This document shows positions 40,587-48,246 of a stretch of DNA of 64,000 nt, one piece after another (position 1 is the stretch's first letter; every line of letters begins with the position of its first letter). The stretch spans positions 3,968,001 to 4,032,000 of the forward strand of contig OZ223209.1 in NCBI GenBank assembly GCA_965140415.1, in the 5' to 3' direction. A model generated the notes under the pieces. It saw only the letters and a program-made list of their open reading frames with translations. It did not search any database and was not told the origin of the DNA. The position numbers and the translations under genes were made by a program. This DNA is from Myxococcota bacterium (GTDB lineage: Bacteria > Myxococcota_A > SURF-8).

Positions 40587-40649
40587 TCCGTCATCTTCCA
40601 TACGGCTTTCCGTTTACAACGCTAAAACCTCATGCTACGGTCATAATCA

Positions 40650-41564
40650 GTGATGGCCGTAGCATGGGAGCAAATATTGACCCGAATAAGCAAACATGAC
40701 GAGCGCCGTGTACGAATCGCGTTCGGTGCGCTTGAAATCAACGACCGCGAGTTTTTCGCGTTGCTGGATGATGCCAAACCCGCTCAACGCGGCTTGGTCC
40801 GCCATTCGCAAGCTCCAATATTGATCAAACTCTACAACCAATTCGGGTTACATGTCACTCTCGGCGATTTTGCCCTGGACTCAAACCGGGGATTGATGTC
40901 TACACGTCCCCTCGCCTCACCACAAGACCGCATTGTCTTCTATGCTGCTAAACAGGCCGAGCATGCCGCTTACCTGAAAGATTTGGAAAGACGAACGCTC
41001 GACGAGAAACCATCTTTTACGGAAAACACTGAAAAGCTTGGACTCGCACTGGGTTATCCGGCCTGTTGCATCCGCTTTTTTTTACAGCATCACCACCTGA
41101 CTACACCGGAATTCCACTTTGCCGTCATCAAGCAAACCAATGGAAGCGCCGTCGCAGAACTGAACCCATTCGAGCCGAAACGTCTGATCAGCCACGAACC
41201 ATGCTCGCTTAATTGCAAGGAATCCATACAAATCGCCAAACAGATCAATCTAGCCCAACCTCAGCCGCTGTCCCGTGAAGAACTATGTGGTAGTTATATA
41301 AGTTTTTCCAGCGGGGCCTGGGTCAAACTGGAAACCACAGGTGATCGGCGACGTATCGTTCGTTATCGCTGTCTGAATAGCTCGGAAGGCTCCTATCCCG
41401 GCACAAATTCCAACAATGTGCCACCCCAAGCCTTATGGCAGCTTTTACAACAGCACGGAACTTTGCATCTTGGCGAAAACAAATTGACCGTCAGTCACAA
41501 CGGCCAACATCCGATTGCTTTGAAAGGTCGTAACAAGCAGTGGCAATGGGTGGAGTTCGTTTAG
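40650..41564 (+). CDS. DUF483-like protein with a probable metal-binding Cys/His cluster
   Basis: LGLALGYPACCIRFF and LISHEPCSLNCKES motifs. Confidence 0.6.
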   Translation: MMAVAWEQILTRISKHDERRVRIAFGALEINDREFFALLDDAKPAQRGLVRHSQAPILIKLYNQFGLHVTLGDFALDSNRGLMSTRPLASPQDRIVFYAAKQAEHAAYLKDLERRTLDEKPSFTENTEKLGLALGYPACCIRFFLQHHHLTTPEFHFAVIKQTNGSAVAELNPFEPKRLISHEPCSLNCKESIQIAKQINLAQPQPLSREELCGSYISFSSGAWVKLETTGDRRRIVRYRCLNSSEGSYPGTNSNNVPPQALWQLLQQHGTLHLGENKLTVSHNGQHPIALKGRNKQWQWVEFV

Positions 41565-41599
41565 AATAAACCTGAGACTACCAACAAACACGAAAAGGA

Positions 41600-41979
41600 T
41601 GTCAACATCCATAAACGACATACGCGCGGCAAATGCCGCGCGTATATTCAGCTTTAAAAAAAGCGGGTCAGGTCGTTGGCTGGTTACTCCCGTTCATGCC
41701 ACACGCAAAACAGATCCAAACAAATAATACCCCTGTCTCTAACTACCCCGTGTAGCGGCCTCCCCGCAAGGCAATGATGGCATCTCTTCTCTGTAGCCAT
41801 CCATGAACCGGTTTGCCCGGTCCGCGTTTGAACTCCCCTCCTCACCCCTATGAGGATAACACTCATTCGATCACTCGAATCAGGCCGGAAGCAACGCGAA
41901 AGAACCTGGATTCCAAAATAACAAAAAACAACGGGAACCTAACCCAAAACCTCTATTCTCACTCAATCTCCCTTGCGCC
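41600..41979 (-). ncRNA. Candidate sigma54-dependent structured sRNA (family unknown)
   Basis: ORF-poor region downstream of a sigma54 motif; at least 7 hairpins plus long-range helices; G-U pairs and a GUGA tetraloop occur only in the minus orientation; 3' end uncertain. Confidence 0.6.
41620..41645. terminator. Strong GC hairpin, probable bidirectional terminator or 3' end of the ncRNA
   Basis: ATACGCGCGGC-AAAT-GCCGCGCGTAT, perfect 11-bp stem. Confidence 0.7.
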
Positions 41980-41989
41980 TAATAACACT

Positions 41990-42006
41990 TGCAAAGTTCA
42001 TTCCAA
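41990..42006 (-). promoter_or_regulatory. sigma54 (-24/-12) promoter
   Basis: TTGGAATGAACTTTGCA: GG-N10-GC, two mismatches to YTGGCACGNNNNTTGCW. Confidence 0.7.
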
Positions 42007-42089
42007 TTCGAAAACTACTACACACTGATATCTATCAGCATGATATTACTAAAATTATCAATCAATACCCTTGTAGTAAATCCGTTGAG

Positions 42090-42147
42090 CGTCAATCTAG
42101 TGACAAATTTTGTCATTTTCCTGTAAAATTTGCGACACCACTGACAA
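42090..42147. promoter_or_regulatory. Candidate enhancer (bEBP binding) sites
   Basis: CGTCA-N6-TGACA overlapping a perfect TGACA-N5-TGTCA (42101-42115), with further CGACA/TGACA half-sites; about 110-170 nt upstream of the predicted +1. Confidence 0.5.
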
Positions 42148-42263
42148 TCTTCGCCCAACATGAAAAAGAGATCAAAAACAAAGCGGTTATTCCTGATAAT
42201 TTGGAAAATTGCAATGTTTTTTGTAACATTAAGGAAGATATTTCTGCTATCCAAATGACTTCG

Positions 42264-42983
42264 TCACTCCTCAATTTCAACAAGCGACAGCTCCAGCTCC
42301 ATCTGGTTCTTCGGCATCGGCAATGTCACCGTAGAAGAGGAAAAGTCCTGCCGCTGTTGTTCATCTATGAACAAAGCAGGAAACAACACGCGCCCGACCG
42401 GAAGATCCGTAAAAGAACACGTTAAAGAAGAAGCCTGCTCCTCGCAAACAACCATCGGCAGTTGAAAACCGGTCTCTTGATCGATCATCGCAGCAGAAAT
42501 CACCTCTTCCGACTCAGCCCCCAACACCACAAGATCCATCTCCGAAGTTTCAAGCCGACTGACGGTCAAATCGACCATTCGAGTTTCTCCTGCCACAAGA
42601 TCCAATATTGCGGGCTCTTCCGTTGCATAACTTTTCAAGGTTTCCCCCTGCACCTTGAATAGTACAGCAGAGATGCTTCTCTCCGCTCCCGCCTCCACCT
42701 CAAGGCTCAACTCATACGCACTGGTCATATCAACTTCCGGTCCCAACACAAGTTGTCCGGTTTGAGGCTCAGTGAAATCCGCTGCATCCACCTTAACCTG
42801 AAACGCTACGGAAAATGCGTCTTCCTGCTCCTGCAACACTCTTGGCACCAAGCCGGTTTCATCCGTTATTTTAAGCGATACCGCTACACCGGCAGGTGCA
42901 TCTTCACCTTGAACGAAACAGCCGCCTAGGACAAGCGTCATCAATCCGGTCAGCAGGAACATCTTTATTGTTTGCCGTGCCAT
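42264..42983 (-). CDS. Hypothetical lipoprotein (beta-rich)
   Basis: Lipobox LGGC; last gene of a coupled operon. Confidence 0.7.
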   Translation of the reverse strand: MARQTIKMFLLTGLMTLVLGGCFVQGEDAPAGVAVSLKITDETGLVPRVLQEQEDAFSVAFQVKVDAADFTEPQTGQLVLGPEVDMTSAYELSLEVEAGAERSISAVLFKVQGETLKSYATEEPAILDLVAGETRMVDLTVSRLETSEMDLVVLGAESEEVISAAMIDQETGFQLPMVVCEEQASSLTCSFTDLPVGRVLFPALFIDEQQRQDFSSSTVTLPMPKNQMELELSLVEIEE

Positions 42984-42984
42984 A

Positions 42985-43788
42985 CTATTCCTTCACTTGC
43001 AAACGTACGGTAATCGTCGCCTTGCCGTGTTCCACTTCAACCCCCTGGCTCTGGCCGTTGACTTCTCCCGCACTGCCGCTGGAACCGGATTCCAAGCAGA
43101 CCGACTCGCCAGCGCTGGCGCGTTCGTCACGCTGCTGCCCGCCTTCGTTGCCGCCTCCGATTCCCACGTCCGCCTCGGTTACCGATACCGGAGCTTCAAA
43201 ATCAATCGGGCTATCGCCTTTTGTTTGCATTCCGGCGGTGCGAATTCCTTCGGGAACGGGTAGTTTCTTCCCTTCCGCCGAAAAACAATCCCATTCCGAT
43301 TCCGGCGATTTCGAATCGTCATGCCGAGAATGAGAAATGATTTCCTTCCCTTCACAATCCGTTAAACGGCTACCTTGCATCAAGCAGACGCTTCCCTGTT
43401 GATCCTCAATTTTGAATCGGCAGGTACCATGACAGGTCACATCCCGCTGGCGTCTGCAAGCGGTACTCCACGCGATGCTTTTTCCCGGAGGAGTTTCAAC
43501 TACGACACTACCTATCATCAATTTCGGAATCGGACTCAAGCGCAGACGGCTATTCTCCTCCAACAACACCAAACCCCGCTCCGGCGCGAACAAACGCACC
43601 CAGGCGCCTTTTCCCGTCGCGATTTCCGTTCCTAAAGGCACTCCGGCTTTGGTTTCCGGCACACTTGGATTGCGATTGACAATCACCGCCCCTTGCTGCT
43701 CTAGAATACTCCATTGCTGCGCCTGAGCCGGCATTGCCCACAAAACGCCCAGCAACAGTATCATGCCAAACAATACGTTTCGCATCAC
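42985..43788 (-). CDS. Secreted FecR-domain protein
   Basis: Signal peptide ending AQA; GTEIATGKGAWVRL....GLVLLEENSRLRL FecR pattern; low-complexity C-terminus. Confidence 0.65.
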   Translation of the reverse strand: MMRNVLFGMILLLGVLWAMPAQAQQWSILEQQGAVIVNRNPSVPETKAGVPLGTEIATGKGAWVRLFAPERGLVLLEENSRLRLSPIPKLMIGSVVVETPPGKSIAWSTACRRQRDVTCHGTCRFKIEDQQGSVCLMQGSRLTDCEGKEIISHSRHDDSKSPESEWDCFSAEGKKLPVPEGIRTAGMQTKGDSPIDFEAPVSVTEADVGIGGGNEGGQQRDERASAGESVCLESGSSGSAGEVNGQSQGVEVEHGKATITVRLQVKE

Positions 43789-45362
43789 CAGGCCCCCTTT
43801 CCGGTGAAGGTCAACATCACCCGGTGCTGAGTGTATTGATATAGATCCACCGTGCTGCGGTTATGGGTAGCATCGTAGGAAACGGAAAGGTCGAAATTGG
43901 CGGTCGGCGTGTAACTCAATGAAGCACCACCAGACAGCAAATGGTCACGCCGCGCCTCCGGCCAGTTCTGACTATCGTCGGAATGGTGATTGTTCAGATA
44001 TTCATAGCGCATCCATCCCACCAGTGAAACGCCATCGACCACAAGTCCGGAGAGTCCGGCAAACGGCCCCACGCCCCAGCGATCGTAATCCGCTCGACGT
44101 GCATTCTCGTAACGGCCATGAGCCTCTAAGAAAAGCTTGAGCCGTTCATCCAGAAAGAAGAAAGACTGTCCCAGGGTCGCACGCCCAAACGTATTGTCGC
44201 GTCCACGATGATGATAAAAACCGCGCCCTGCTGAAACTTTCAGGGAAGTTTGCGTGGTTGACTCTCCCAACTCGCCTTCGGTCACCGCATAACGCAGCCA
44301 ACCGGAATGAGACTCGCTATAAACGTACGTATCCGGCTCTTCAGCCATCGTTCCGCCATCCAGCCCGACCAACGAACCGCTGTATCCGACTTGAATTTCC
44401 TGATCCAGCCCGCCACCAATGAAGCGCAGACGATATCGTGGCGATACCAGTAGCGTCCAGGAAGAAAAATCATCTGCCGGATCTTCGTAATAAAAAGTAC
44501 GAGACAATGACAAATCCGCTCCAAGCAGATGTCGCGCCTTGCGCAACGGATAAACACCCAGTTTCAGCCGCAAACTTGTTCCAAACGAATCGGGGCTTTG
44601 CCCGCTCTCACTCGCAGGATCGTCCGGCTGCTGAATGACATTGCTTTCGTACAACAGGGAAATCGCTCCCGCCACGCTGATCAAGGGATAGCGCTGGGGA
44701 CCATCATAGGCCATCTGCAACATTCGCTGCGCCGAATCGGAAAAGGCATTCGGGCTACCAGGTCGGTCGATGTAGTTCGTTAAACTGCGTCTGGCGTGCA
44801 CGTTATCCTTCTGCTGCAATTGAGCCAGTCCGAGATAATAGTCGATCAATGGCAATTCGGACTTTGCCATTTGCGGAACCTTTTTAAAGTGACTTTCGGC
44901 TGTCATTGGATCCTGCAATCCCAGTGCAGCCAATCCAAGCAGGTAGTGATAGCGAGACCGCTGTGAATCGACCAGCAGCGTTTCGGCTTTGCGCAGAGTC
45001 CGCTGAGCCCAAACATGCTTTTCGCGTGCGAGATATACTTCGGCCAAGCGAAAATGAAGAGTGACACTCTTAGGTTGTGCGCGTAATGCACGCGCATAAG
45101 CCTTCTCTGCCTGTTTCCACTGTCGATTGCTTACATGCCAGGCAGCCATGGCTGTCAGCGCCTGCCAGCACTGCCGATCCTGTTGAAACGCCTGCTTCCA
45201 TGTTTGAATGGCGGACTGTTCTTCTCCTTGCAGCACCATCGCCTGCCCCTGTGCAACGGCGAAATTGCAAACCACATCTGCTTGCGCCGATGCAAATGGG
45301 ATCTGGCAACCCAACAAGATCGCAAGCCCCAACACCGATAGCAGGACTTTATTCCACGCCAT
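43785..45362 (-). CDS. TPR repeats + C-terminal outer-membrane beta-barrel (Slam/DUF560-like architecture)
   Basis: Signal peptide; TPR helices (YHYLLGLAAL, YYLGLAQL); barrel starting LLYESNV; end HNRSTVDLYQYTQHRVMLTFTGKGAW. Confidence 0.7.
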   Translation of the reverse strand: MAWNKVLLSVLGLAILLGCQIPFASAQADVVCNFAVAQGQAMVLQGEEQSAIQTWKQAFQQDRQCWQALTAMAAWHVSNRQWKQAEKAYARALRAQPKSVTLHFRLAEVYLAREKHVWAQRTLRKAETLLVDSQRSRYHYLLGLAALGLQDPMTAESHFKKVPQMAKSELPLIDYYLGLAQLQQKDNVHARRSLTNYIDRPGSPNAFSDSAQRMLQMAYDGPQRYPLISVAGAISLLYESNVIQQPDDPASESGQSPDSFGTSLRLKLGVYPLRKARHLLGADLSLSRTFYYEDPADDFSSWTLLVSPRYRLRFIGGGLDQEIQVGYSGSLVGLDGGTMAEEPDTYVYSESHSGWLRYAVTEGELGESTTQTSLKVSAGRGFYHHRGRDNTFGRATLGQSFFFLDERLKLFLEAHGRYENARRADYDRWGVGPFAGLSGLVVDGVSLVGWMRYEYLNNHHSDDSQNWPEARRDHLLSGGASLSYTPTANFDLSVSYDATHNRSTVDLYQYTQHRVMLTFTGKGAW

Positions 45363-46206
45363 TTACGATGTCCTTTTCCTCTTCGATCCGGTCCCGCAAT
45401 TCCGTTTCCGTTTTAATTCCATGATAGAATTTGCCGTTAATGAAAATCCCCGGCGTTCCAATCACTCCCAGAGCCAGTCCTTCCATCTTTTCCTTGCGGA
45501 TACGGTCCAGGACATCCTTGGATTTCATGTCCTTTTTAAAACGTTCAAGATCCAACCCCAGCTTGCTCGCACACTGGTTCAATACTTCTTGCGAAAGGTC
45601 ATCACTTTCATAAAGAAGATCGTACATCGGCCAGAATTTTCCCTGCTTCTCCGCAGCCAATAACGCCTGGGCGGATACGAGTGCACTTTTGTGCTGTTTT
45701 ACCGGAAAGTTCTTGTAGTAATAGGTGATTAATCCGGTCTTTTCCTGGCTGATTCGTCGTAAAGCCGGAGCCGCAACGTTACAATACGGGCACTCGAAGT
45801 CCGCATAAACCACCACTTTGACCGCAGCCTTGGGATCACCGGAAGGCAATAATCCCGTTACATCGATCTGTTGCGTTTTGGGAGGATAGGCAGAGGCGGC
45901 CCGTTGCTCGATTTCGCGCAGAATATCCGCCTCGCTTTTACCTAAGATCGCGCGACGCACGACATAGGCCGCCAAACGCCTGGGAGTGTGCAAACTCGGT
46001 TCTTCATTCAAACAAGTCAGGATGGTATCGGAACATCCGGCATAGCATTCCGCCTTTTTCAGCACCGCTTCCGCCGTTGCCTTTTGTGTCCCCTGTAATT
46101 CCTTCGCGCCTTCAATCGCCGACCAAGGAATTGGATTCTGCTCCGCCCAAACCGGCATTGCGAACAGACACAGTAACAGGACACACATCCACCCACTCCG
46201 ACTCAT
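45349..46206 (-). CDS. Periplasmic DsbA/thioredoxin-fold oxidoreductase
   Basis: YADFECPYC, cis-Pro loop GTPGIFING; extra N-terminal CYAGC...TCL domain. Confidence 0.88.
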   Translation of the reverse strand: MSRSGWMCVLLLCLFAMPVWAEQNPIPWSAIEGAKELQGTQKATAEAVLKKAECYAGCSDTILTCLNEEPSLHTPRRLAAYVVRRAILGKSEADILREIEQRAASAYPPKTQQIDVTGLLPSGDPKAAVKVVVYADFECPYCNVAAPALRRISQEKTGLITYYYKNFPVKQHKSALVSAQALLAAEKQGKFWPMYDLLYESDDLSQEVLNQCASKLGLDLERFKKDMKSKDVLDRIRKEKMEGLALGVIGTPGIFINGKFYHGIKTETELRDRIEEEKDIVNGVE

Positions 46207-46682
46207 TATCCTCTCCTTTTTATCCAGCGGTCCAGGCCGTAACGACCATCATCACATATCAGAACGAAACCGGAACAAAACAACCACCCCAGATCGCGAA
46301 ACACGGTATGTACCCCGATCTCGTCGGCAGCCGCCTGACTGGCAAAGCAGCCGCAAGACATCTTCAGGTCTTTGGTCAGTGCAATACCCAAAGCGGCAAT
46401 AAACATCAGCATCATACCACTCACCAACAAAGCGGCTTCGCGCGTCCACAATCCCGCAATCAAACTTGCACCCACGATCAACTCAAGCCACGGCAGAAAC
46501 AAGGTAAACACATTGATCATCGCCAGCGGCAAAATCTGGTAGGTCGCAACCGACAGGGCGAAGACCTGCGGATCGTAGATTTTAAACAGGCTGGCCAATA
46601 CGAATACCAACCCGATATACACTCGTAGCGGTAACGCCAAACGCACCGCCCATGTTTTCATGTGCGTTCGCTCCAGCATCAC
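46206..46682 (-). CDS. MauE/DoxX family redox-associated membrane protein
   Basis: FKIYDP..F...V..YQILP, LPWLEL..G..L..G, SCGCF, RD. Confidence 0.88.
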   Translation of the reverse strand: MMLERTHMKTWAVRLALPLRVYIGLVFVLASLFKIYDPQVFALSVATYQILPLAMINVFTLFLPWLELIVGASLIAGLWTREAALLVSGMMLMFIAALGIALTKDLKMSCGCFASQAAADEIGVHTVFRDLGWLFCSGFVLICDDGRYGLDRWIKRRG

Positions 46683-47179
46683 TCGCCCTTCCCGTTTTCA
46701 AACAAACGTCGATATGTAGGCTCGTCCTTCAAATACCCCACATTCTCCAACTCGGTGGAGATCAATTCATCGGCCAATGCCTTGGCGGAAACGGCATCTC
46801 CTACCACAAGCAACGTGCGCCCCTCCTGTTTCTCGGCCAAACTCTTCACAATTTCTTCCGAAACGGGAAAGATAGGATCGTATGGAACCGAAAGTGCGGA
46901 ATCGGCATGTCCAACTTCAAACTGAGCGCCTGGCCGAGCATCGACAATCAGAAAACGCGCCCTGTCCAGCAAAACCGTGTCGAGAGAAATCTCCTGAGAC
47001 GTCTTCAGGGTTTCGGGACAATCCTGAAAAATCTCGTATGGTTGTTGTGCGACCCAAGGCAATGGGGTAGGTCGAGCTGCATTAACGACAAACGCCAGCA
47101 ACGCAGATAGCGAAACCAGAATCGCCATCCGTATGATCGAGCGCGTAATGATGCGCCGGTATCCCTCCATCAGACTCAT
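46679..47179 (-). CDS. Membrane-anchored rhodanese-like domain protein
   Basis: N-terminal TM with VNAARP..LPW; IVDARPGAQFEVGHADSALSVP; the usual active-site Cys loop reads LVVGD. Confidence 0.75.
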   Translation of the reverse strand: MSLMEGYRRIITRSIIRMAILVSLSALLAFVVNAARPTPLPWVAQQPYEIFQDCPETLKTSQEISLDTVLLDRARFLIVDARPGAQFEVGHADSALSVPYDPIFPVSEEIVKSLAEKQEGRTLLVVGDAVSAKALADELISTELENVGYLKDEPTYRRLFENGKGE

Positions 47180-47181
47180 CC

Positions 47182-48246
47182 TTACTTACAACAGCGGAAT
47201 CCCACGTTATTGATCGCTTCGGCTCCGTCTTTTCGAATGTACGTACACATGTGCAGCTTTTTCGAATTGCTGCAATTGTAAGCGCCCCCGCGCGCCTGCC
47301 CGCTCGGGTCGCTATCCCACTCCCAGACATTGCCGTTTAAATCGTAGGCGCCATACTCTCCCACGCAGTCCTCCAACACACCGGTCGGCACGACTTTGAA
47401 TACGACCTTGCCGTCATCCAACGCCTGTAATCCGCAACCGAACACGGGTTGCTCGCAAAACGTATCGATACCATTACAAGTTGCAGCCTCGTAGTCGGCT
47501 CCATAACAATAGTCCGCCTCCTCGCTGCCTTGACAAGCCGAGAGCCATTCGCCAGGGTTGCACAGTCGTTTCTCAGCGTGTTCGCAAGCCGATGCAGCCT
47601 GCTGTACGGAGAGATTCACCCAGGGCAATACGCCTTGTCTGGAAGTAGCTCGGCTTTCATCCGTTCCCGCGCTCGATTCCGTTGCATCGGGACGCGAAGC
47701 TTCATAGCGATCGATACAAAACAGCCCATCTACCGCAACCATATCTTCCGGACAACAAAGCAGATCCTCGTCGATCAGCCAGTCACAGTCGTTATCGATA
47801 CCGTCACAGATTTCGACACCGCCATTGGTAATCGTACATTCGCAACCTTCATCGATCTGGCCGTTGCAATCGTTATCCACACTATCGCAAACTTCTTCCG
47901 GATCTGCTGTCGGTTTGCATTCGCAACCGTTCTGAGGTTGCAAATCGGCATCGAAAAAGCCTTCATCACAAGCGATTAGACGACACTCACCGTGCACGCA
48001 TTCACTATCTGCTTGCGGTGCGCGTGGGTAGGGGCAACCTTGACAGCCCACGGAATTTTCGCAGCGGTTATTGATACAGCTTTCATCGATGTCGCAATCG
48101 AGGTCTTCCTGGCATTGCAGAATACAGGTTTTCTCTTCGCTACAGATCTGCACACCGCCGCAATCCTCATCCGTCAAACATTCACCCTCGACCACACAAG
48201 CCGAAAGTAGAAACAGACAACCCAAACTCCACACGAATACTCGCAT
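47182..48246 (-). CDS. Cys-rich lipoprotein with a C-terminal FGE-sulfatase (SUMF1/C-type-lectin fold) domain
   Basis: Lipobox LSAC; CxxxxDC repeats; two E.CD..DNDC motifs; CPEDM, FCIDRYEAS, KRLC...EW..AC, YDLNGNVWEW, RGG, GFRCC. Confidence 0.85.
   Translation of the reverse strand: MRVFVWSLGCLFLLSACVVEGECLTDEDCGGVQICSEEKTCILQCQEDLDCDIDESCINNRCENSVGCQGCPYPRAPQADSECVHGECRLIACDEGFFDADLQPQNGCECKPTADPEEVCDSVDNDCNGQIDEGCECTITNGGVEICDGIDNDCDWLIDEDLLCCPEDMVAVDGLFCIDRYEASRPDATESSAGTDESRATSRQGVLPWVNLSVQQAASACEHAEKRLCNPGEWLSACQGSEEADYCYGADYEAATCNGIDTFCEQPVFGCGLQALDDGKVVFKVVPTGVLEDCVGEYGAYDLNGNVWEWDSDPSGQARGGAYNCSNSKKLHMCTYIRKDGAEAINNVGFRCCK

Follow-up and report, generated by a model that had tools for sequence, protein, structure and literature searches.

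Does the long gap between two convergent genes in this chromosome encode an RNA, or is it no more than a spacer? In the 64 000-nucleotide stretch of DNA analysed here, which we call the window, the coordinates place the gap at 41565–42263 (699 nt), between the end of a DUF483-like gene on the plus strand (41564) and the end of the last gene of an operon on the minus strand (42264), which encodes a protein of 239 aa. Its size puts it in the top 17 of the 623 convergent gaps of the genome. A preliminary description had claimed that the gap is free of credible ORFs and that it carries a structured small RNA transcribed from a sigma-54 promoter. The first of these claims was borne out, as the ORFs of the gap lack family support: when the six of them were compared with Pfam, the best match had an E-value of 0.057, far below the cut-offs. 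As to the second, we lean towards reading the gap as a separate minus-strand gene for a non-coding RNA, predicted to be driven by an enhancer-binding protein and sigma-54 RNA polymerase and to be co-regulated with pilin. The host belongs to an almost unstudied class of deltaproteobacterial type.

A search of the 64 kb window against Rfam 15 gave no match at the gathering threshold; at E ≤ 10 the best was DicF, which scored 16.5 bits where 48 are required. The locus is therefore not a 6S RNA, tmRNA, RNase P RNA, SRP RNA or curated riboswitch, in agreement with the preliminary description, which had recognized none of these in it. Pxr, CrcZ, Qrr, GlmY/Z and CsrB/Rsm are among the other families that it failed to match. 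Retrons, omega-RNAs, CRISPR arrays and MITEs were considered and rejected, because no RT, TnpB or IscB gene was found near the locus and a paralogue search with blastn and nhmmer found no second copy of the region in its own genome. A sponge of the CsrB type was likewise rejected; about eight GGA motifs are present in 390 nt, where about nine are expected.

The -24/-12 element of the gap (Table 1) has the GG-N10-GC spacing that marks sigma-54 promoters and, from promoter geometry, would direct initiation near 41979, about 12 nt after the GC. The genome has a single rpoN gene (E 3.8e-66) and 32 matches to the sigma-54 activator family PF00158, 29 of them at E ≤ 1e-25; none of the 32 falls within the window. 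We scored the element with a matrix built from 53 non-coding sites of its own genome that have at most one mismatch to TGGCAC-N5-TTGC, a training set from which the candidate, with two mismatches, was absent. It ranked 46th among all GG-N10-GC sites. Of the 46 at or above its score, 34 are non-coding, in the sense that a crude ORF map, which leaves ∼10% of the genome free, has no ORF there. With the iterated matrix, 45 non-coding sites scored at least 17, and 36 of these have an ORF of at least 100 aa within 400 nt downstream; thus the matrix picks up real promoters. The -24 element of the candidate reads TGGAAT, and the A that follows GG, where C is usual, is the sole case among the 45 top non-coding sites. 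Taken by itself, TGG-N8-TTGCW is present at 596 places in the genome. Other orphan sigma-54 promoters are predicted in it, at G000:C1:283686 and 5063323. A scan of the minus strand found no sigma-70-like site. The inverted repeat just upstream of the -24 element may be a site for a second regulator, or else the stem of a weak terminator-like hairpin (42042–42021) that would act on read-through from the operon.

Further upstream lies a box of the enhancer type that spans positions -107 to -92 relative to the -24 GG, and thus falls within the 80–150 nt at which an upstream activator site is expected. It is accompanied by distal enhancer-like sites, namely TTGTCAG (42147–42141) and TGTCGCAAATTTTACA, a TGT-N10-ACA sequence (42137–42122), with TGTC half-sites at -142 and -133. 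The same arrangement marks the promoter of type IV pilin. The best-scoring sigma-54 site of the genome precedes a gene for a 125-aa pilin with the N-terminal methylation motif PF07963 (E 7e-9), here called pilA, and CAAANTTTGTCAC occurs just twice in the 6 Mb genome, at pilA and at the RNA locus. The pilin box, TGTCAAACTTTGTCAC, and that of the RNA locus, TGACAAAATTTGTCAC, are offset by 2 nt relative to the -24 GG; the core begins at -109 at the pilA promoters of the host genome (G000) and of two relatives (G006 and G009), and at -98 in a third (G133). The proximal box of the RNA locus is identical at 16 of 16 positions to that of the G006 pilA promoter, and in G000, G006 and G009 the pilA promoter has, in addition to its proximal box, a TTGTCAC/GTCAC site 40–50 nt farther upstream. 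Besides these binding sites, the promoter regions of the RNA locus and pilA have nothing in common. No activator gene lies beside pilA.

When 401 genomes of the phylum were scanned with the pattern AAANTTTGTCAC-N85-105-TGG-N8-TTGC, five matches were obtained in four genomes and none with the reversed control, the box motif having been partly defined only after the pilin and RNA loci were compared. Four of the five are the pilin promoters of G000, G006, G009 and G133, and the remaining one is the RNA locus. Within the order (10 genomes), a looser pattern gave 11 matches and no control matches; the pilA promoter of G001 was a new one among them, so that the box is kept at five pilin promoters, that of the host genome and those of four relatives. 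It also precedes a gene for a 1041-aa beta-propeller/LVIVD lipoprotein in the host genome and genes for acidic lipoproteins in G002 and G008. No conserved second member of the regulon emerged from this, the only tblastn homologue of the 1041-aa protein being in G002, on the opposite strand and upstream of the box. Together, the genome-trained matrix and the upstream box common to pilin promoters strengthen the sigma-54 reading of the motif. As the type IV pilin promoter has this box too, equally far upstream, we propose that the RNA would be produced together with pilin.

Table 1. Features of the candidate RNA locus, in window coordinates; P, pairing probability.
Feature	Position	Strand	Remarks
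Distal enhancer-like sites	42121-42149	-	about -118 to -143 from the -24 GG
Proximal enhancer-type box GACAAAATTTGTCACT	42099-42114	-	AAANTTTGTCAC core begins at -107 from the -24 GG
Inverted repeat CTGATA-GA-TATCAG	42025-42038	.	just upstream of the -24 element; from sequence and terminator-like scan
-24/-12 element TTGGAATGAACTTTGCA	42006-41990	-	GG 42004-42003, GC 41992-41991
Predicted RNA, shortest version (324 nt)	41656-41979	-	predicted +1 near 41979; predicted 3' end at the U7 run
Closing helix, 5' arm (GGGUUAGGU and CGUUG)	41929-41945	-	pairs with 41678-41665; P 0.97 (9 bp), 0.77 (5 bp)
Stacked-helix sub-domain, GCGUU/AACGC and GCUUCC/GGGAGU	41824-41897	-	P 0.95-0.99; same helices in every fold
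GNRA hairpin AUUCGA-GUGA-UCGAAU	41880-41865	-	within sub-domain 41824-41897
Hairpin UCCUCA-UAGGGG-UGAGGA	41856-41839	-	loop AGGG; within sub-domain 41824-41897
Hairpin GGACCGG-GCAAA-CCGGUUC	41805-41823	-	P 0.88; GACCGG-GCAAA-CCGGUU is 41822-41806
Variable hairpin GAUGGC-N14-GCCAUC	41776-41801	-	P 0.99
Hairpin GCCUU-GCGGG-GAGGC	41758-41772	-	P 0.94
Long imperfect hairpin closed by GCUACACG/CGUGUGGC	41698-41756	-	8 bp closing helix, P 0.98
Closing helix, 3' arm (CAACG and ACCUGACCC)	41665-41678	-	followed by GC, then U7 (41662-41656)
13 bp GC-rich hairpin	41618-41647	.	P 0.93; weak U tails on both strands
Small hairpin GGAUG-UUGA-CAUCC, then UUUUCGUGUUUGUU	41590-41610	-	last possible 3' end; from terminator-like scan

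Reading the minus strand across 41300–42400 placed every motif and hairpin where the preliminary description had put it, including the long-range pairing UUCGCGUU/AACGCGGA with GCUUCC/GGGAGU and the GC-rich hairpin at 41645–41620. The ensemble altered the architecture in two respects. The local hairpin GCUAC-ACGGG-GUAGU is displaced by the 8 bp helix 41756–41749/41705–41698 (P 0.98), and a long-range helix absent from the preliminary description, 41945–41937/41673–41665 (P 0.97), closes the domain just before the U7 run. This run is thus preceded by a long-range helix, with no compact terminator hairpin before it. Longer versions of the predicted RNA would end near 41612 or 41590, giving an overall range of 324–390 nt; the small hairpin at 41610–41597 has a U-rich tail, and the 13 bp hairpin may be a two-way terminator that also serves the convergent DUF483-like gene.

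Comparison with shuffled sequences, a check that had been proposed at the outset, favoured the minus strand over both the shuffles and the plus strand. For 361 nt, the minus strand folds at -136.7 kcal/mol (z -4.23, with 0 of 100 shuffles as good) and the plus strand at -97.7 kcal/mol (z -3.27). For 328 nt, z was -3.00, and a separate script gave -3.40 for the minus strand and -1.64 for the plus strand. The difference is seen again in the 176-nt core, where z was -2.37 on the minus strand, with 1 of 200 shuffles as good, and -0.85 on the plus strand, with 37 of 200. Three of 23 other long gaps of the genome, taken on their better strand, also reach z ≤ -3, so we regard the fold as unusual, not extreme.

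Homologues were sought widely. None was found by blastn in 60 relatives, and a covariance model (R1) gave none in the nine other genomes of the class, whose 10 genomes also make up the order. In 150 genomes of the phylum it returned two partial matches at chance level (E 0.04 and 0.1), and at eight syntenic loci, searched with filters off, the best score was 10.8 bits and no homologue was recovered. A metagenome scan with the 239-aa protein gave no homologous locus, a second with a pattern of three G-rich elements was empty, and plasmid and phage collections held no homologue. The relatives searched are distant, with flanking proteins 25–38% identical. None of six loci with homologues of the 239-aa gene has a long gap downstream of it; L007, which tblastn could not place, is not among the six. 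For the DUF483-like gene a single full-length relative was found, in G002 (31% identity), and there a convergent ORF lies 27 nt farther on. The RNA candidate is known from its own lineage only, with no conservation found in these searches beyond a near-identical strain. Homologues with compensatory changes, by which structured RNAs are recognized, were thus not found, and the variation at hand amounts to four letters in one low-depth contig, described below. The proposal of an independent sigma-54-dependent small RNA has held up in its lack of ORFs with family support, its lack of Rfam matches, its strand-asymmetric fold and its promoter, but not in the conservation among relatives that had been set as a test of it.

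Contigs from four sequencing runs were compared with the locus; contigs cannot reveal transcript starts. X4, an RNA library from a wetland in another study, yielded a 290-nt contig (41735–42024, depth 2.7). Its far end lies 45 nt upstream of where the RNA is predicted to start, so that it takes in the promoter, which does not agree with initiation at 41979, and it may be DNA carry-over. Coverage in X4 is confined to this interval, and the lack of cover elsewhere carries no evidential weight. The contig has four variants, of which the one at 41800 lies in the stem of the variable hairpin and the other three, among them 41784 and 41782 in the loop of that hairpin, in a loop or a linker; the change at 41800 turns an A-U into a G-U pair and retains pairing on the minus strand only. 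Run X3, whose library type is not on record, has a 328-nt contig (41645–41972) at depth 26.4, with 2.6–4.7 for the four other listed contigs; since depths of contigs do not allow parts of a stretch to be ranked, we do not take it as a sign of expression. X1, near-identical throughout the stretch, is possibly the DNA from which the sequence came. Six contig ends in X2 fall at GATC sites, and it behaves as a proximity-ligation DNA library, uninformative on RNA.

The principal alternative reading is that the gap holds regulatory DNA with no functional RNA, the promoter being a chance or vestigial one or a decoy site, any transcript noise, and the fold a product of a G+U-rich spacer and terminator hairpins. 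We consider this unlikely, while giving it real weight. The restriction to a near-identical strain, the comparable z-scores of three control gaps, the departure from C after GG and the fact that the sole RNA-library contig crosses the predicted promoter would all suit it. A vestige would be expected to drift, however, and the box is intact, matching that of a relative's pilin promoter throughout and being correctly spaced and oriented with respect to a -24/-12 element of high rank; the strand-specific core fold and the length of the gap also speak for an RNA. It is improbable, in our judgement, that the locus is instead a decayed gene, in which the promoter once served a pilin paralogue or another gene of the regulon and the downstream region is its remnant. 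The minus-strand frame from 41966 reads ..RGFGLGSRCFLLFWNPGSFALLPA and then a stop, which by eye is loosely like a pilin N-terminus, its span from GF to PA being 23 residues against 24 in pilin, and the region shares the 11-mer GCTTCCGGCCT with the G006 and G009 pilA genes at matching codons. Yet when a profile of five pilin N-termini was run against the three-frame translation, 1050 of 1500 shuffles reached the observed score, as did 29–293 of 300 shuffles in local DNA alignments to five pilA loci; moreover, the 28-aa peptide has no Pfam N_methyl match, and the likeness of the two promoter regions stops at the binding sites.

Transcription might also enter from upstream, in which case the RNA would be the 3'-UTR of the seven-gene operon, a transcript reading through from it, or the product of another promoter upstream of 42024; to this we give similarly little credence. 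The X4 contig, in that it includes the promoter, and the want of a strong terminator after the 239-aa gene, where there is only the weak hairpin already mentioned, are as this reading predicts, whereas the minus strand offers no sigma-70-like site, the X4 contig is shallow and may be DNA, and the geometry of the enhancer box and the -24/-12 element fits a start at 41979. Finally, it seems very improbable that the gap encodes a small protein, either the 60-aa ORF at 41866–41684 or the 28-aa ORF at 41966–41883. Both are open on the right strand, and the former has a CHHC motif, but neither has a family match, and the 60-aa ORF has no homologue among proteins of 33–105 residues; no Shine–Dalgarno sequence is suitably spaced, and a hairpin arm takes up the ATG. 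All four X4 variants are non-synonymous in the 60-aa frame, read by eye, and two of them remove cysteines of the CHHC motif.

For an independent RNA gene, the reading that we favour, the following sequence of events is proposed. An NtrC/PilR-type enhancer-binding protein would bind the TGTC-type sites at about -95 to -145, including the proximal box at 42114–42099, and activate sigma-54 RNA polymerase at the -24/-12 element (42006–41990). The transcript would begin near 41979, and its 3' end would lie at 41656, in the U7 run, or at one of the two downstream hairpins. The resulting 324–390 nt would fold into a multi-branch domain closed by the long-range helix, with a 5' leader of 34 nt and an internal linker rich in U left single-stranded. 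Made together with pilin, the RNA would presumably be trans-acting, through base pairing or protein binding, and so tie other functions to pilus production. A bolder version, which we offer tentatively and hold to be rather doubtful, is that this ∼330–390-nt multi-branched RNA belongs directly to the type IV pilus regulon, made with pilin from a PilR-type enhancer and sigma-54 promoter, and that it couples pili to cell-surface or metabolic functions. It might do so by base pairing or, perhaps by way of the NGGG hairpin loops that recur in it, by serving as a sponge or scaffold; it would then be the first small RNA arm of a PilSR-type system. When the 5' leader and the U-rich linker were paired in silico with 4141 start regions, taken from a crude ORF map, the duplex energies were no better than those of reversed sequences; pilA ranked 3718th and 3997th, and no prominent base-pairing target appeared among the 4141.

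Pilin genes are under sigma-54-dependent regulators in Geobacter, Myxococcus and Pseudomonas (PMC3333781), and PilR regulons extend past pilA (PMC6058289). Type IV pilus two-component systems are known to control more than pilin, and an RNA output is not described in the literature searched, which likewise yielded no PilR-dependent small RNA; what is called 'PilR' in cyanobacteria is an antisense RNA, alike in name alone. If the present reading is right, the locus gives a handle on how pili are coupled to other functions in an uncultivated wetland lineage, and it suggests that a shared enhancer box and -24/-12 element with no ORF downstream can reveal lineage-specific RNAs that homology misses. 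If the RNA proves to be unexpressed, the locus becomes a caution that promoter match and fold, however good, are insufficient for an RNA gene.

The proposed logic has precedents. CrcZ (CbrB), Qrr1–4 (LuxO) and GlmY (GlrR) are trans-acting regulatory RNAs whose synthesis depends on a two-component enhancer-binding protein and sigma-54; CrcZ is about 400 nt long and acts as a protein sponge. RNAs of this kind, Qrr, CrcZ, GlmY and Pxr among them, tend to occupy decision points of bacterial behaviour. The candidate is like CrcZ, Qrr1–4 and GlmY in its proposed enhancer-binding-protein/sigma-54 control, and like CrcZ in size, but it has no Rfam match, no A-rich repeats of the CrcZ type, no enrichment in GGA, and an activator box of the pilin type. 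With Pxr of Myxococcus xanthus and relatives it shares an intergenic position, a deltaproteobacterial-type lineage, a predicted sigma-54 promoter and a fold of several stem-loops (PMC5568312). Pxr has 108 nt and three stem-loops and lies always just downstream of the enhancer-binding-protein gene nla19 (PMC5568312), whereas the candidate is three times longer and multi-branched and has no activator gene nearby and no Rfam match. The regulator DVU0679 targets a small RNA (PMC3333781) whose promoter, by its description, is bound by a sigma-54-dependent two-component regulator, as is proposed for the candidate. That RNA, too, was found from a binding site and a -24/-12 element with no ORF downstream; it differs in adjoining its own regulator gene and in having no link to pili. 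A parallel in promoter design is the control of pilA by PilS–PilR and sigma-54 in Pseudomonas, Myxococcus and Geobacter, with which the candidate shares a TGTC-type enhancer ∼100 nt from a -24/-12 promoter; there the product is pilin, whereas that of the candidate locus is predicted to be a non-coding RNA.

The candidate RNA, a predicted minus-strand non-coding RNA with +1 near 41979 and a 3' end at 41656, ~41612 or 41590, lies in a gap flanked by convergent genes (see table). The gap is 699 nt long, among the top 17 of 623 convergent gaps (crude ORF map), and its G+C content is 42.5% compared with 52.4% for the genome. The adjacent seven-gene operon, in which a weak rhodanese-like match falls under the Pfam cut-off, has the appearance of a cluster for envelope redox chemistry or maturation. 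The perfect inverted repeat next to the promoter could be a second-regulator site or part of a weak operon terminator. Reading of the minus-strand sequence recovered each motif and hairpin of the preliminary description in its place.

Features of the gap and its surroundings (P, probability from the partition function computed over 41979-41590)
Feature	Coordinates	Strand	Details
DUF483-like gene	40650-41564	+	PF04467, E 6.6e-6
Gap	41565-42263		
239-aa gene	42264-42983	-	last of seven-gene operon
Seven-gene operon	42264-48246	-	Pfam: MauE/DoxX, DsbA-like thioredoxin, FGE-sulfatase/MopE-like, TPR, two without family
Enhancer-type box	42114-42099	-	
Perfect inverted repeat CTGATA-GA-TATCAG	42025-42038		immediately 5' of -24 element
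-24/-12 element	42006-41990	-	GG 42004-42003
Closing helix	41945-41937/41673-41665	-	P 0.97
Closing helix, additional pairs	41933-41929/41678-41674	-	P 0.77
Stacked sub-domain	41897-41824	-	GUGA hairpin and AGGG-loop hairpin; P 0.95-0.99
Hairpins	41823-41805, 41801-41776, 41772-41758	-	high probability
Long hairpin	41756-41698	-	P 0.98

The genome has one rpoN and 32 matches to the sigma-54 activator family, 29 with E <= 1e-25. Because the bare pattern TGG-N8-TTGCW is common (596 in the genome), a matrix was trained on 53 non-coding sites that departed from TGGCAC-N5-TTGC at no more than one position. The candidate element has two mismatches and was outside this training set; it ranked 46th among all GG-N10-GC sites on both strands, in line with the earlier judgement of a good -24/-12 motif. 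Sites at or above the candidate lie mostly (34 of 46) in the ~10% of the sequence that the crude ORF map leaves uncovered, and three of the five in its mismatch class are non-coding. With an iterated matrix, whose training may include the candidate, 45 non-coding sites scored >= 17; 36 had an ORF of at least 100 aa within 400 nt and nine did not, among them the candidate (longest downstream ORF, 60 aa). Against the promoter reading, the candidate alone of those 45 has A instead of C after GG.

Two further sites outside the window are recorded here. Downstream of the sigma-54 site that scores third in the genome (G000:C1:5063323-5063700, +) come a GTTG-repeat-rich leader of ~250 nt and then a 29-aa ORF, MKAVFELF... 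A second orphan sigma-54 site, CATTGTTGGCATGAACATTGCAG (G000:C1:283686-284130, +), lies ~140 nt beyond the end of a gene for an enhancer-binding protein (281812-283548). The ~400 nt that follow it contain no long ORF and end in a hairpin of terminator type whose tail is U-rich; this arrangement recalls Pxr/nla19 and points to a further candidate sigma-54 sRNA.

The palindrome TGACAAAATTTGTCA, upstream of the candidate promoter, was searched genome-wide with up to 2 mismatches, and one match lies upstream of the genome's best sigma-54 site, which drives a 125-aa type IV pilin (PF07963, E 7e-9). The box reads TGTCAAACTTTGTCAC at the pilin promoter and TGACAAAATTTGTCAC at the RNA promoter, at positions 2 nt apart relative to the -24 GG; both promoters have more TGTC/GTCAC sites 30-50 nt upstream of it, and they hold the genome's two copies of CAAANTTTGTCAC. 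Since the motif was defined after both loci had been compared, it was tested in other genomes. AAANTTTGTCAC-N85-105-TGG-N8-TTGC gave five matches in 4 of 401 phylum genomes (reversed control, 0), four of which precede pilin genes (in G000, the genome under study, and its relatives G006, G009 and G133), the fifth being the candidate locus, whose box agrees with the G006 pilin-promoter box at all 16 nt. A looser pattern gave 11 matches in 10 genomes of the order (controls, 0): at pilin genes in G000, G001, G006 and G009, at the candidate locus, at lipoprotein genes in G000, G002 and G008, and at three remaining sites that are probably chance. The box is thus a conserved element of pilin promoters, and it is present at the candidate promoter in the right place and orientation; this unexpected link strengthens the sigma-54 reading.

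Pilin genes of Geobacter, Myxococcus and Pseudomonas are controlled by sigma-54-dependent regulators (passages of PMC3333781), and PilR uses the M. xanthus pilA sigma-54 promoter (passages of PMC6211767). The activator at the box would presumably be a PilR orthologue; no activator gene was found beside pilA or inside the window.

The pilin gene stands apart from pilus assembly genes, with an ABC transporter downstream of it; ~6 kb upstream (L099:3262-5772, +, in the excerpt around the pilin gene) lie two NIR_SIR/ferredoxin-domain genes side by side (459 and 357 aa), similar to a dissimilatory sulfite reductase pair. A third AAANTTTGTCAC copy, outside the window (G000:C1:4186973, -), lies ~650 nt upstream of a strong sigma-54 site (4186292, -). 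A gene for a 1041-aa lipoprotein with a beta-propeller (PF09826) and LVIVD repeats (L113:2784-5909, -; G000:C1:4818783-4821908) has a top sigma-54 promoter with a TTTGTCAC box ~95 nt upstream, as at the pilin and candidate RNA, with which it may be co-regulated; its G002 homologue adjoins a similar box on the opposite strand.

Folding was compared with shuffles on both strands, and at all three lengths the minus strand beat both the shuffles and the plus strand, as the preliminary description had anticipated. On the minus strand the 361-nt stretch folded at -136.7 kcal/mol, which none of 100 shuffles equalled (z -4.23); the plus strand gave -97.7 kcal/mol (z -3.27), a signal largely due to a symmetric GC hairpin (41645-41620). 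For the 328-nt stretch the minus-strand z was -3.00 (-3.40 with our own script; plus, -1.64 with that script), and for the 176-nt core -2.37 (1 of 200 shuffles as good; plus, -0.85, 37 of 200). For comparison, 23 other gaps of at least 400 nt in the same genome were folded over their central 328 nt, and three gave z <= -3 on the better strand; the fold is better than average for spacers of this genome, not unique. After the closing helix's 3' arm come GC and then U7; most of the first 34 nt at the 5' end is unpaired, as is most of a U-rich linker (about 41930-41898). As to mode of action, the hairpin loops of NGGG type (41849-41846 and 41767-41763) are no more than suggestive.

The best-supported reading, towards which we lean, is an independent RNA whose transcription depends on an enhancer-binding protein with sigma-54 and which is co-regulated with the pilin. 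That the gap instead encodes a small protein is very improbable. ORFs of 40-150 aa overlap it on both strands; a Pfam search of six gave a best E of 0.057, far short of cut-offs, the 28-aa ORF (41966-41883) has no Pfam family, and the 60-aa minus-strand ORF (41866-41684) has no relatives among the 33-105-residue proteins of a large collection, in line with the earlier statement that the gap has no credible ORF. A decayed pilin-type gene is doubtful, its tests not rising above shuffles. In the whole 64-kb window no Rfam 15 family reached its gathering threshold, in line with the exclusion of 6S, tmRNA, RNase P, SRP and riboswitches; at E <= 10, 41400-42400 had five matches, all far under threshold (best, DicF, 16.5 bits vs 48).

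An RNA from read-through or started upstream is likewise doubtful, and bears on one result from public runs, which were compared as contigs only. X4, recorded as metatranscriptomic (wetland, another study), has one 290-nt contig (41735-42024) in which five letters differ, four of them listed; at depth 2.7 these may be errors. The change at 41800 turns A-U into G-U in the 41801-41776 hairpin, keeping the pairing on the minus strand only, those at 41784 and 41782 fall within its 14-nt loop, and that at 41773 in a linker; four letters, possibly errors, thus fit the predicted fold. In the 60-aa frame all four are non-synonymous and two lose cysteines, in one near-identical variant. The contig spans the promoter, which is at odds with a start at 41979 except in the case of DNA carry-over or read-through; as a single low-depth contig crossing the promoter, it leaves transcription of the candidate RNA unproven. 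In another run, X2, six contig ends in 40600-43000 fall exactly at GATC sites and have foreign loose ends, as a proximity-ligation DNA library would give. Promoter-like DNA without function, or transcriptional noise, is unlikely, yet the foremost of these alternatives. Homologues were not found beyond the near-identical X4 strain in the relatives' genomes, metagenomes, plasmids and phages searched. The class is poorly sampled (the collection has just 10 species genomes for it), identity of the flanking 239-aa protein in class genomes is 25-38%, and the best RpoN relative (labelled Myxococcota MAG) reaches 55% identity; that genomes at this distance lack the candidate RNA means that it is young or fast-evolving, not necessarily unconstrained. 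When the 5' leader and U-rich linker were searched for duplexes with 4141 start regions, they performed no better than the reversed sequences, pilA ranking 3718th and 3997th. For the independent sigma-54 sRNA first proposed, then, promoter rank, pilin-type box and minus-strand fold speak in favour, and the promoter-crossing contig and lack of homologues against. We conclude that the feature is real and well described, its expression unproven and its conservation not found.

CrcZ, Qrr and GlmY are regulatory RNAs made via a two-component enhancer-binding protein and sigma-54, a control logic that the candidate RNA would share. Full-text literature searches turned up no sRNA under PilR control; the supplements of PMC3333781 and a Geobacter PilR-site survey may contain cases. 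By sequence, the candidate RNA appears to lie outside the Pxr, Dv_sRNA2, CrcZ, Qrr and GlmY families. As described in parts of PMC5568312 and PMC3333781, respectively, Pxr and Dv_sRNA2 adjoin their activator gene, whereas the candidate RNA does not; it would resemble both as a predicted regulatory RNA made by a two-component-type enhancer-binding protein with sigma-54.
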